The notes under the pieces: generated by a model | The model's input: the letters and a program-made list of their open reading frames with translations, nothing else | Told to the model about the DNA's origin: nothing | Databases searched by the model: none | Part shown: positions 17,799 through 40,872 of the stretch, in pieces | How positions within the stretch are numbered: the stretch's first letter is position 1 | Layout of the letters: each line of letters starts with the position of its first letter | Program-made: the position numbers and the translations under genes | From: Dehalococcoidia bacterium | Lineage (GTDB): Bacteria; Chloroflexota; Dehalococcoidia; GIF9; UBA5629 | Length of the DNA: 49,481 bases | Direction: 5' to 3' | NCBI GenBank assembly: GCA_050014895.1 | Contig: JBEKCL010000001.1 | Span: forward strand, 1 to 49,481

Positions 17799-18524
17799 TT
17801 AAGCCCTGGCCCTGCCCATCGGCATGACACGCATCCCGATGCCAGGGTCCACATCGAAGCTCAGAATGTTGCCGGTATTTTTATCTGCACCTCTCACCTT
17901 GGCAACCTCAAGCACCTTGACCAGCTTATCTCCGACCTCCTCAATTCTTAACCTAAAATGAGCATCGCAGGCAGACCGTATACGGATCAGTACCTGTTCA
18001 TCAATTGCATATGTATGCGTAATGTTGATGATTGTGCGGCCCCCGTCACATAATTTTTTACACTCCTCAAAATAGTCAATTATCTGCTCAACAGACGTAT
18101 GTGCTATAACCGGCGTCAAAGAGTCTACCACTATCAGCTTGTAAGTCGGATAGGCCATTATTCCGGATATAATCGTCGAGAATGTATTCATTGCCTTCAT
18201 TTTCGAGGCTTCCACCTGGAAGATCTTTATCCAGCCGAGCAGCAGGGAATCCAAGATGCCCAGACCAAGGCTTTCCATCTGGGAATGCATACTCTTGACA
18301 GTGTTCTCCGTGGTGAAAAGCAACACCCTGTGGTGCGCACTCAGGGCGCCCCACATCATCTGCTGTGATAGCACTGATTTGCCAGCGTCGGACTGTCCCT
18401 CAATCAGGGTTAAAGAACCCACGGGGATTCCTCCACCAAGCCTCTTATCAATCTCGGAGTGCCCCGTACAGATTATTTCGTCTTGCGACCGTTCTTCTTC
18501 GTCAGATGATAGTATTTTGGTCAT
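17799..18524 (-). CDS. arlH: ArlH (FlaH), KaiC/RecA-like ATP-binding archaellum protein
   Basis: IDKRLGGGIPVGSLTLIEGQSDAGKSVLSQQM (KaiC-like Walker A). 241 aa. Located between the ArlF/G-family genes and arlI. Confidence 0.8.
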   Translation of the reverse strand: MTKILSSDEEERSQDEIICTGHSEIDKRLGGGIPVGSLTLIEGQSDAGKSVLSQQMMWGALSAHHRVLLFTTENTVKSMHSQMESLGLGILDSLLLGWIKIFQVEASKMKAMNTFSTIISGIMAYPTYKLIVVDSLTPVIAHTSVEQIIDYFEECKKLCDGGRTIINITHTYAIDEQVLIRIRSACDAHFRLRIEEVGDKLVKVLEVAKVRGADKNTGNILSFDVDPGIGMRVMPMGRARA

Positions 18525-18679
18525 CTTATCCCCTTACCAAATTTGCTTTTCCATACTTTTACCAACCAAATGCAAGCTCACTTTTAGCCCCATTGGGAGT
18601 TACCACTGTCGCCAGGTTAGTCGTGTTTTCAGTGGCTGCCGGTGATAGTTTTATTACTATCCGCATGTCCTCACCCGGG

Positions 18680-19057
18680 TCAAGAATATTGGGTCCGTAA
18701 ATCTCCGGACGTCCTTGAAAAAAAAAAGCCGCCGGTCTGCCAGCCTGGAATTGCCGCTGAATATGGTATCCAATCCGTACTTCCGTTCTGGTAACGGACT
18801 ATCACATCCCATGCGCTATAATTCTTTAGTGATGTCCTACCGCTGTTGTGAATGTACATCGTGACCGTTGAGCCGCTATCGGTGGTAGTACTGTTTTCAC
18901 ACGTAATACCTGTGCCAATAATATCCCTCGACATCACTTGTTGCTGCCTAAGTGCGTCTGACATATTATTTATAGCATTCAACGCACTCATCGATAGGGA
19001 CAGAGCGCCAATAATCAGCAATGCGATGCAAACGAGTGTGATAGCGAAATTTTCCAT
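18680..19057 (-). CDS. ArlF/ArlG-family archaellum stator protein, apparently truncated by a frameshift at an A10 tract. The frame-corrected gene would span 18559-19057.
   Basis: N-terminal TM helix FAITLVCIALLIIGALSL followed by a beta-rich domain. The +1 frame after the homopolymer reads FFQGRPEIYGPNILDPGEDMRIVIKLSPAATENTTNLATVVTPNGAKSELAFGW*, which parallels the C-terminus of the neighbouring paralog. Confidence 0.6.
   Translation of the reverse strand: MENFAITLVCIALLIIGALSLSMSALNAINNMSDALRQQQVMSRDIIGTGITCENSTTTDSGSTVTMYIHNSGRTSLKNYSAWDVIVRYQNGSTDWIPYSAAIPGWQTGGFFFSRTSGDLRTQYS
18718..18727. repeat. A10 (T10 on the coding strand) homopolymer at the frameshift point
   Basis: Direct reading of the plus strand: ccttgAAAAAAAAAAgccgcc. 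Confidence 0.95.
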
Positions 19058-19075: not shown

Positions 19076-19540
19076 CTAAAAACTATAAATATCCTGGTCC
19101 GAAATACCATTCGGAAGCACGATTTTAAAATAATATGATCCAGAGGGCGCCGATGCTAGAGAAATGATAATTTTCACGGTAGCCGTGGGGCCCCATTCAG
19201 TGCCATTTTCAAGGGAGTAACCCCAACTCGGTATGGTTGCGCCCGTTTGATCATAAGGAATCCGTGCAAAATTACCTTCGGGACCGAAAAAAACATCGCT
19301 GCCGCTTATTCCGCTAATGTGGGAAGCGCCGATATTTTTGATCCATGCATATACGTTACTGCCGCTATTGGATACCTCTATTATCTGCACCTGGCAGCGG
19401 ATTCTATCGTCGATTTTGCCGCTCGCATCAGCAATTGCCCCTGTGCTTTGCGTAATCGCCGGCATGATGGCATTGATAACAACCATGCAGCAGACGACAC
19501 CTCCGATAATAAGAAGGAGCGTTACAAGAACCTTATCCAC
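19076..19540 (-). CDS. ArlF/ArlG-family archaellum stator protein (154 aa)
   Basis: N-terminal TM helix VLVTLLLIIGGVVCCMVVINAI followed by a beta-sandwich-like region ending TVKIIISLASAPSGSYYFKIVLPNGISDQDIYSF. The F versus G assignment cannot be made by eye. Confidence 0.6.
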   Translation of the reverse strand: MDKVLVTLLLIIGGVVCCMVVINAIMPAITQSTGAIADASGKIDDRIRCQVQIIEVSNSGSNVYAWIKNIGASHISGISGSDVFFGPEGNFARIPYDQTGATIPSWGYSLENGTEWGPTATVKIIISLASAPSGSYYFKIVLPNGISDQDIYSF

Positions 19541-20393
19541 GGTTGGACTCCTTCATCATCGAGAGGATCGACAGCAGGGCATTATCCTGGATCTGCTCAC
19601 CGCCCATCAGACTTTCAAGCTGGGCCAGCGTAGCAAGGTAATCCGTAGCAGTTGGGGACTGCGTACTGGTCGATTCATAACGTGATATACGTACCATCCT
19701 GATCAGAACGTCCTTAATATTCTCAGGAATCCGCCCCATGGCGGTTGACATTTCCACCAGCGCTTCAGTCCTGTCTTTTCCCAACTTGGCTGAAGCCTGG
19801 TCAACCCACTGGGTTAGACCGGCAATTACTACCAGGTCAGCGCGGGTGCCGCTCATTAAGGCATTTGGACTCTTTTTCTTACCGTTTTTCGGAGTCACCG
19901 GCTTTGTGTTGGCCAGAATGTCGTCTTCTTCGGACTCATCAGAATCATTCTTTCCTTTCTTCTTGCCCTTGCTCTTCTGTAGCTGCTCTTCTTCATCTTC
20001 CTCAGGCTCCGTCTCCGCTGACGGACCTGGCCCGTCAGAGGGACCTGCCCCCGGAAGGTCCATCGTCGGTCCCTGAAAACCTGGCTTCTCAGCTCCTGTG
20101 CCTGCAGATAGGTCGGTAAATGGATTGCCAAAGGAAAGACCGGCGTCCGGCATGTCTGCAGATGCGGAAACCGTATTGTCGCCGGCCAGGTCAAATTCCT
20201 CCGTTGGTACCTCAGGCTGTTTTTCCTTTTGTTCGGGGTTAGCTCCTGCGGGTGGCGTGCCCGTATTGTTGAAATTAAAGGGGTTCTGTATATTAAGGTA
20301 CTGTTCCCTGATATCGAGTAAGATCGTCTTGACCTCATTTTTCAGGATTTTCAGTTCCTCTTCCATCAGTTTTATTCTTTGTTCTTCATTCAT
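19533..20393 (-). CDS. Archaellum accessory protein, ArlD/E-like (alternatively ArlX-like): N-terminal coiled coil, long acidic/Pro-rich disordered linker, conserved C-terminal domain
   Basis: MNEEQRIKLMEEELKILKNEVKTILLDIREQY (coiled coil). C-terminal LTQWVDQASAKLGKDRTEALVEMSTAMGRIPENIKDVLIRMVRI resembles the FlaD/E domain pattern (W.d.l....G.....l.....g.I.e.....L). Positioned between the archaellins and the ArlF/G genes. It overlaps the next gene by 8 nt. Confidence 0.45.
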   Translation of the reverse strand: MNEEQRIKLMEEELKILKNEVKTILLDIREQYLNIQNPFNFNNTGTPPAGANPEQKEKQPEVPTEEFDLAGDNTVSASADMPDAGLSFGNPFTDLSAGTGAEKPGFQGPTMDLPGAGPSDGPGPSAETEPEEDEEEQLQKSKGKKKGKNDSDESEEDDILANTKPVTPKNGKKKSPNALMSGTRADLVVIAGLTQWVDQASAKLGKDRTEALVEMSTAMGRIPENIKDVLIRMVRISRYESTSTQSPTATDYLATLAQLESLMGGEQIQDNALLSILSMMKESNRG

Positions 20394-40053: not shown

Positions 40054-40872
40054 CTACATAAGTGGAGACAGGTACCAGGCCAGTATTGCCTTACCCCACA
40101 GCAATGCAGCTATTCCGCCCAGGCACAGAAACGGGCCAAACGGCATAGGGTCCTTGCGCCCTCGGCGCCTCGTCAAAAGCAATATCCCCGCCACCAGACC
40201 ACCGCCGATTACCCCTATAAAAAGCGCTACAAGGACGATGGGGAAACCGGTCATCATTCCAATGAGCGCCGCCAGCTTTACATCTCCAAATGCCATGCCG
40301 CCGCGTGAAATAATGACTACCAGCAATAACAGTATAAACCCCGCCAAACCGCCTAATATGATATTGATAAGGTAATTATATGTAAGCATAAATATCCCTG
40401 ATGCGGGAAAAGCAAAAAACCAGTGAGGTTTTACATTTATAAGCATAATAGCCAGGGAAATAAGCAGCACCATGATGGATCCGGGGTATGTTACAACGTT
40501 GGGAATAAGCATTTGTTCGATATCAGTCACAAGTAGGATCAGCAAAAGCAGACAATAGATTACCAGTACCGACAGCTCCCAGCTAAAACCATATTTCCAG
40601 AGAAGGTAGGCCATCAGCAAGCCTGTACCAACCTCCACCAGGATGATATGAACCGGCAGCGGCTTACCACAACTGGGACATTTATTTCTTGCAAGCAAGT
40701 AGCCGACTACCGGCAGCATATACAAGGGCCGCCAACTGACGGAACAATTCCTGCAATTGGAGAAAATAAATGTCCTCGGCTCCCGGGTCAATCCTCCCCC
40801 TATATAATTGACCAGGCTGCCGCAAAAAAGCCCCAAAATAAAAAAAAACAGGTAAAAGAAGTACATTAACAT
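40054..40872 (-). CDS. pilD: Type IV prepilin peptidase (A24 family, PilD-like) with an N-terminal Cys-rich motif
   Basis: CRNCSVSW...CPSCGKPL. Catalytic Asp contexts LLVTDIEQMLIP and MAFGDVKLAALIGMMTGF. PFGPFLCLGG. Polytopic membrane protein. Confidence 0.85.
   Translation of the reverse strand: MLMYFFYLFFFILGLFCGSLVNYIGGGLTREPRTFIFSNCRNCSVSWRPLYMLPVVGYLLARNKCPSCGKPLPVHIILVEVGTGLLMAYLLWKYGFSWELSVLVIYCLLLLILLVTDIEQMLIPNVVTYPGSIMVLLISLAIMLINVKPHWFFAFPASGIFMLTYNYLINIILGGLAGFILLLLVVIISRGGMAFGDVKLAALIGMMTGFPIVLVALFIGVIGGGLVAGILLLTRRRGRKDPMPFGPFLCLGGIAALLWGKAILAWYLSPLM

Follow-up and report, generated by a model that had tools for sequence, protein, structure and literature searches.

How can a gene that is split by a homopolymer, in an operon whose other genes are intact, give a complete protein? 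The question is raised by the window analysed here, 49,481 nucleotides from the draft assembly of a Dehalococcoidia bacterium (308 contigs, 3.51 Mb, 89% completeness), which carries the operon of a bacterial archaellum of the kind described by Sivabalasarma et al. 2025 (PMC12488501). On the minus strand, ten consecutive T's at 18727-18718 (A10 on the plus strand at 18718-18727) stand in the context CCA GGC TGG CAG ACC GGC GGC T10 CAA GGA CGT and, as a first-pass annotation of the window had stated, split an ArlF/G-family ORF that ends at 18680. Frame 0 starts with an ATG at 19057-19055, reads FFF through the run, continues as SRTSGDLRTQYS and stops at TGA 18682-18680 after 125 aa. From within the run the +1 frame reads FFFQGRPEIYGPNILDPGEDMRIVIKLSPAATENTTNLATVVTPNGAKSELAFGW, followed by TAA 18561-18559. 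Removal of one T, a step that the first-pass annotation had also taken, joins the two frames into an ArlF of 165 aa, and the gap to the ATG of arlH (18524) shrinks from 155 nt behind the frame-0 stop to 34 nt behind the +1-frame stop, distances that our coordinates confirm. A separate start for the C-terminal piece was considered and rejected: within the window, the +1 frame holds no start codon able to initiate this piece alone and no start-codon ORF.

An arlF gene in two frames

Table 1. Coordinates of the arlF region; positions are those of the window
Feature	Positions	Strand	Description
arlF segment 1	18728..19057	-	Codons 1-110 in frame 0; N-terminal membrane helix and beta-strands 1-5, according to the ORF and a structure model of the in-frame allele
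Putative T10 slip site	18718..18727	-	Homologous to T9 followed by C in other genera; nine T's invariant in 18 distinct sequences
arlF segment 2	18559..18717	-	52 codons and TAA in the +1 frame; predicted to encode the last three beta-strands of the ArlF/G beta-sandwich
Frame-0 stop TGA	18680..18682	-	Terminates the 125-aa product that decoding without a slip would give
Weak GC-rich hairpin, 5 bp	18731..18744	-	Immediately upstream of the T-run; flagged as terminator-like; in relatives, stability not above background
arlG-like intact upstream paralog	19076..19540	-	NCBIfam ArlG, 31.8 bits; PDB FlaG 5tug, E 2.5e-10
arlH (KaiC-like ATPase)	17799..18524	-	Start lies 34 nt past the +1-frame stop of arlF

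We assign the interrupted gene to arlF, which follows arlG in the stator gene pair of this operon, because of the gene order and of the relative profile and structure matches to F and G. It adjoins arlG and precedes arlH, in agreement with the arlG-arlF order of Chloroflexota archaellum operons (Sivabalasarma et al. 2025, PMC12488501). Its profile matches FlaF best among PDB entries (4p94, E 3.9e-6), followed by FlaG (6pbk, E 1e-4, full-length), and the joined protein scores higher with the NCBIfam model of ArlF (26.8 bits) than with that of ArlG (22.3 bits), both scores being far under the cut-off, which is 110 for the ArlF equivalog. The intact gene upstream matches FlaG of Sulfolobus acidocaldarius as well as the NCBIfam ArlG model. 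At the place of arlCDE, between the archaellin genes and arlG, lies a gene for 286 aa with a long acidic low-complexity middle (19533-20393, minus strand), for which neither Pfam nor NCBIfam gives a match at E <= 0.01. The close relatives of the host belong to Dehalococcoidia / Chloroflexota and come from peat, fen, lake sediment and soil, and all genomes compared here are uncultured MAGs.

The joined 165-aa protein scores 34 bits with Pfam Arch_flagellin over residues 36-161, above the cut-off of 29.5; the 125-aa frame-0 ORF has no Pfam match. The resemblance of the restored end to the C-terminus of the adjacent paralog, which the first-pass annotation had seen by eye, is borne out by BLASTP, where residues 1-160 of the joined protein align with residues 1-149 of the paralog across the junction (E 2e-7). 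For an in-frame allele of the gene, introduced below, AlphaFold2 yields from an 83-sequence alignment a model with a mean pLDDT of 92.6, consisting of a helix (2-48) and eight strands (51-59, 64-71, 84-88, 94-97, 105-113, 129-136, 146-152 and 158-164). In this model FFF (111-113) closes strand 105-113, a long loop comes next, and the three strands that follow are encoded downstream of the T-run in the +1 frame. A Foldseek search of the PDB returned S. acidocaldarius FlaG (TM-score 0.88 by target) and FlaF as top matches, with TM-scores to the two ranging from 0.73 to 0.88. By this model, a membrane helix at the N-terminus and a complete ArlF/G beta-sandwich make up the joined product, and three of the eight strands would be absent from the frame-0 product.

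The run is the sole A/T run of ten or more nucleotides in the 3.51-Mb assembly. Runs of at least nine number 10, compared with about 27 expected from base composition; the genome carrying the window tends to avoid long A/T runs. The window's other 9-nt run, a minus-strand T9 at 40840-40848, is in frame (FFF) and breaks no frame; it forms codons 9-11 in the hydrophobic N-terminus of a 272-aa minus-strand ORF (40054-40872).

Inheritance of the frame break and selection on the run

We searched 77 genomes of the family with the joined protein and found an ortholog in 28. In 13 genomes, which belong to six genera and include a single-contig genome of 2.5 Mb, the ortholog shares over 55% identity with the query, and each of these orthologs is interrupted at one and the same point. 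The junction is T9 followed by C in ten and T10 in three; a +1 shift is needed in every one. T10 corresponds to T9C with a C-to-T change that is synonymous in the +1 frame (TTC to TTT). The C-terminus encoded in that frame is conserved across the 13 genomes (FFFQG.PEIYEPNIL[DN]PGE.M...L.P..T[ED]N.TNL..V..PNG......F..), while the frame-0 stop differs in position between genera, giving products of 117-130 aa.

Metagenomes give the same picture. A scan of JGI contigs for this junction, with a pattern open to runs of 8 to 11, recovered 17 true loci, each with 10 nt between the start of the run and a CAR codon (15 with T9C, two with T10). Furthermore, about 50 protein clusters at 90% identity, drawn from NCBI, JGI, ENA and Logan, contain products of 108-130 aa that end in FFF and an out-of-frame tail, the first residue of which is P in 41 clusters, S in five, R in three and T in one. 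The window's own cluster comprises four sequences on 11 contigs, whose products all have 125 aa. By these comparisons the frame break is inherited and is not a sequencing error. One member of the window's genus (G002) has T10 together with a further deletion and frame change near codons 40-48, at which about nine residues are gone; either the gene is decaying in this lineage or the MAG, which has 550 contigs, is misassembled at this place.

The sole in-frame allele that was found (P0003, 165 aa) reads T8C and lies on a 1097-nt MEGAHIT contig, L048 (ENA ERZ27245470, k141_696158). This contig is identical at 1097 of 1098 positions to a T9C contig, JGI Ga0116202_10149858 (L066/L078), and the T9 product of that JGI contig also occurs in a second ENA assembly, ERZ27247973 (L079). 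Its T8 is either a genuine minority allele, in a population with more than one tract length, or a wrong consensus call on a contig this short. Neither T11 nor T10C was seen among the 18 distinct genes, the JGI loci and the roughly 50 clusters. A different departure is found in P0040 (L059, JGI Ga0124853_1302773), which keeps T9, reads FFFPGTTGDLRA and then returns to the conserved frame at NILNPGE. In this lineage frame 0 appears to be regained through another indel about 27 nt beyond the run, which could free the gene from its need for slippage.

More distant orthologs are contiguous and have I-F-L, I-Y-F, I-S-F or similar residues at the position of F-F-F, without a gap; one of the closest contiguous relatives (G081) reads GGC ATT TTT TTA, a T7 run. 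Among 401 Dehalococcoidia genomes sampled across the class, 77 of which have the gene, it is split solely in the subclade of this family, and all sampled ArlF orthologs from other Dehalococcoidia families are contiguous. When class-level orthologs are included in the tree, the 19 split sequences form one clade (support 100/99) nested among contiguous ones. With the distant paralog as outgroup, the root fell within the split group, poorly supported, and the base was unresolved; it was the rooting on class-level orthologs that settled the placement of the clade. Because the split genes form a single clade within contiguous orthologs, the extra T was gained once and has been kept through the divergence of at least six genera.

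For the analysis of selection we used 18 distinct full-length gene sequences, which align without gaps as 110 codons, the run and 52 codons and which, being related, are not statistically independent. Among them, pN/pS is 0.23/0.71 in the upstream half (dN/dS about 0.16) and 0.15/0.68 in the downstream half read in the +1 frame (dN/dS about 0.11); read in either of the two other frames, the downstream bases give a dN/dS of 1.5-1.6. Synonymous sites are almost saturated with differences (pS about 0.7); third codon positions differ among the sequences in 104 of the 110 upstream codons and in 50 of the 52 downstream ones. In the midst of this variation, T1 to T9 of the run are identical in all 18 sequences, the run being T9 or T10 and never shorter. 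As an approximate calibration of this invariance against synonymous sites, both synonymous forms occur at 11 of the 12 invariant two-fold-degenerate codons and at none of the three codons of the run, and 36 of 38 codons for invariant residues vary at the DNA level. Phe is elsewhere in these genes encoded by TTC 28 times and by TTT 12 times, and the first Phe of the run occupies a position at which Ile is at least 90% conserved in the 83-sequence family alignment. The dN/dS pattern, the invariant T's and the variable synonymous sites show that both halves of arlF are protein-coding and under purifying selection, unlike those of a dead gene, and that the nine-T run is itself selected at the nucleotide level, beyond what the protein needs.

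Making full-length ArlF

Since the gene is always split and yet both halves are strongly selected, a built-in slip site is the reading we propose, and because nine T's are conserved we favour slippage of the polymerase over a single-codon shift of the ribosome. Programmed transcriptional slippage at the T-run is, in our judgement, the probable source of full ArlF. The first-pass annotation had listed expression through polymerase or ribosome slippage as one of three options; this is the option that the evidence favours, with the nine-T conservation pointing to the polymerase. In the proposed mechanism, the extra T would have left the clade of at least six genera with DNA that has no single frame for the full protein. 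RNA polymerase would slip on the nine or more T's, a length equal to that of the RNA:DNA hybrid, and a share of transcripts would be one U short and encode GG-FFF-QG, which aligns gap-free and at equal length with the contiguous orthologs. A gain of two U's would give FFFF in its place, at the end of the strand by the loop, where it may be tolerated. Ordinary translation of the slipped transcripts would then produce ArlF of 165 aa, and unslipped ones would yield the fragment of 117-130 aa from which three of the eight beta-strands are absent. That the slip takes place during transcription, and with what efficiency, is what we infer.

The strict floor of nine T's, which holds even at synonymous sites and at the expense of a conserved Ile, fits a requirement at the level of the polymerase. 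On runs of nine A or T, slippage by the bacterial RNA polymerase is efficient (PMC5009743), and it has been described for Tn with n > 8 (PMC3711429). At 9-nt runs insertions predominate (PMC5009743), whereas arlF requires the loss of one U or the gain of two; the share of productive transcripts may therefore be modest. The host assembly also holds, outside the window (contig C103, about 172-1330), an IS3-family element with A9 at 451-459, in which orfA (HTH_Tnp_1) ends 13 codons past the run and orfB (rve integrase core) is in the +1 frame. By analogy, this is the layout of IS1447-type elements and would depend on the loss of one A in the transcript.

RNAalifold finds no conserved hairpin before the run, of the Roseiflexus IS630 or terminator type, and no conserved structure downstream. 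The best hairpins abutting the run average -7.2 kcal/mol as against -5.1 kcal/mol at other positions in the gene, with a median rank of 0.26; a stimulatory upstream hairpin is not convincing at an energy rank this near background. Quadruplet decoding or an unusual tRNA was likewise rejected, as ARAGORN predicts 51 ordinary tRNAs with a single tRNA-Phe (GAA).

Programmed ribosomal frameshifting by +1 (or -2) on the U-run is an alternative that we hold to be unlikely. The peptidyl-tRNA-Phe (GAA) would slip from UUU to the overlapping UUC or UUU and decoding would continue with CAG or CAA in the +1 frame. Such re-pairing would be perfect, and better than that in frame 0 in genomes with T9C; only one tRNA-Phe is encoded in the genome, and the FFF product has the length of the contiguous orthologs. 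A one-codon +1 shift, however, needs about 4 nt, yet all nine T's are invariant, including three synonymous positions. In frame 0 the run is followed by a variable sense codon (CCA, UCA, CGA or ACA), and neither a Shine-Dalgarno-like element nor a downstream structure is conserved, the 12 nt upstream of the run varying freely. Moreover, in one lineage T9 is followed by A, which makes the last +1 codon UUA, poorly read by tRNA-Phe.

Slipped-strand mispairing in the DNA could, alternatively, make arlF phase-variable, the ON/OFF motility switch of the first-pass annotation: T9 and T10 would be OFF in most cells, and the few cells with T8 or T11 would swim, a bet-hedging strategy. Tracts of 9-10 identical bases are prone to mutation, contingency loci typically include genes for motility and the cell surface (PMC3711429), and the T8 contig that nearly equals a T9 contig could record a change in DNA length, be it real or made by assembly. 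We nevertheless regard such a switch as improbable, as it has to be reconciled with a tract that is fixed over deep divergence: the distance to the CAR codon is 10 nt in all 18 other distinct genes and in the roughly 50 clusters, at saturated synonymous divergence. Classical contingency loci show many tract lengths, with ON and OFF states among strains. Here T10 arose by a C-to-T substitution and not by an indel, both halves are selected as strongly as in a routinely expressed gene, and the lone T8, in a background otherwise identical to T9, lies on a contig of 1.1 kb and could be a consensus error.

Decay of the gene, or a shortened protein in which the frame-0 product of 117-130 aa is functional and the downstream part a remnant, is very improbable. 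Annotation pipelines do call the short ORF alone, and the arlF of G002 carries a further deletion. Against decay stand the dN/dS of 0.11 in the downstream +1 frame, with third positions varying at nearly all of its codons, and the intact remainder of the arl operon. The first-pass annotation had allowed that the short form might be the conserved one in orthologs; it is the +1-frame C-terminus that is conserved, and the frame-0 tails are unlike in length and sequence. Because three of eight strands would be missing and the tails differ between genera in this way, the frame-0 product is unlikely to be the functional form and is probably inert. Finally, although runs of nine or more are error-prone and the window comes from a draft of 308 contigs, an assembly or sequencing error, the remaining option of the first-pass annotation, can be practically dismissed, as the identical break recurs in independent NCBI, JGI, ENA and Logan assemblies, that is, in 13 genomes of six genera (one of them a single contig), 17 JGI contigs and about 50 clusters, with 11 contigs from the window's own cluster.

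Possible role and relation to known recoding systems

If transcriptional slippage makes ArlF, why is the run not simply repaired? Mutation from T9 back to T8 is expected to occur often, but in none of the sampled lineages has it spread, which suggests that the out-of-frame state is favoured by selection. The simplest rationale would be that ArlF is made at a fixed, low level compared with ArlG and the other motor proteins; the site might also affect the translation that enters arlH, 34 nt past the +1-frame stop. More tentatively, the T-run could be a selected dosing device, in which obligatory slippage sets the amount of ArlF to a small part of that of ArlG and of the other motor proteins, with an efficiency that follows UTP supply or growth state. 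Were this so, swimming and stator assembly of a horizontally acquired archaeal motor would be tuned in its bacterial host by the fidelity of transcription, and archaella would have their first described case of recoding. In the literature we found nothing that links archaellum genes with transcriptional slippage or programmed frameshifting; frameshift and arlF/FlaF co-occur for a laboratory strain of P. furiosus alone. The site goes unmentioned in two studies of Chloroflexota archaella, one of them PMC12488501, in which the words frameshift, slippage and pseudogene do not appear.

The finding has a practical side as well. Annotation pipelines list arlF in these genomes as a hypothetical protein of 117-130 aa or as a shortened FlaG, and it will therefore be miscounted when the completeness of Chloroflexota archaella is surveyed. 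For the field of bacterial archaella the T-run offers a concrete and testable regulatory element. It also provides a clean natural case of a frameshift long kept by selection in free-living bacteria, and this long retention argues for usefulness, probably in stator stoichiometry, rather than for mere tolerance.

With ArlF/FlaF and ArlG/FlaG of S. acidocaldarius (PDB 4p94, 4zbh, 5tug, 5tuh and 6pbk) the window's arlF shares its fold, and with the Chloroflexota archaellum (Sivabalasarma et al. 2025, PMC12488501) the arlG-arlF operon order; unlike the window's arlF, neither has a reported frameshift. Among recoded genes, prfB (release factor 2) resembles arlF in having a conserved, obligatory +1 frame change in a gene of essential function. 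Its site, CUU_UGA_C, includes an in-frame stop and is stimulated by an upstream Shine-Dalgarno element, whereas arlF has neither a stimulator nor an in-frame stop. The rescue of poly(A) tracts in Buchnera and Blochmannia, where homopolymer indels are tolerated and 12-50% of transcripts are back in frame (PMC5009743), concerns many sites under weak selection in AT-rich, reduced endosymbiont genomes. By comparison, arlF has one such site, unchanged across genera, in a free-living lineage and in a genome that elsewhere avoids long runs.

Closer parallels come from slippage at 9-nt homopolymers. In dnaX of Thermus thermophilus it yields two products with a common N-terminus, tau and gamma (PMC5009743), as proposed for arlF. 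There, however, the full-length form is the unslipped one and both products are functional, while full-length ArlF would need the slip and the short product is probably inert. IS1447-type IS3 elements of Clostridium thermocellum have A9 with the downstream frame at +1, like the run in the window; among 52 cDNA clones 9 had A8 (17%) and 8 had A10 (15%), with A9 in 30 of 30 clones of genomic DNA (PMC6211511). These are transposases of mobile elements with a stem-loop before the run, whereas arlF is a chromosomal motility gene without a conserved hairpin. Nearest in kind are spa13, mxiE, mxiA and spa33 of Shigella flexneri, in which RNA polymerase slips at A/T runs and gives a C-terminally extended, functional product for a nanomachine of the envelope, as we propose for arlF; for spa13, 25-30% of the product is extended (PMC5009743). 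The arlF case differs from these type III secretion genes in that it concerns the stator of an archaellum, in Chloroflexota, with a +1 change (one U fewer or two more) and with slippage that is deduced from comparative sequence analysis. To a catalogue of transcriptional slippage dominated by IS elements, dnaX and type III secretion genes, arlF would thus add a chromosomal motility gene.
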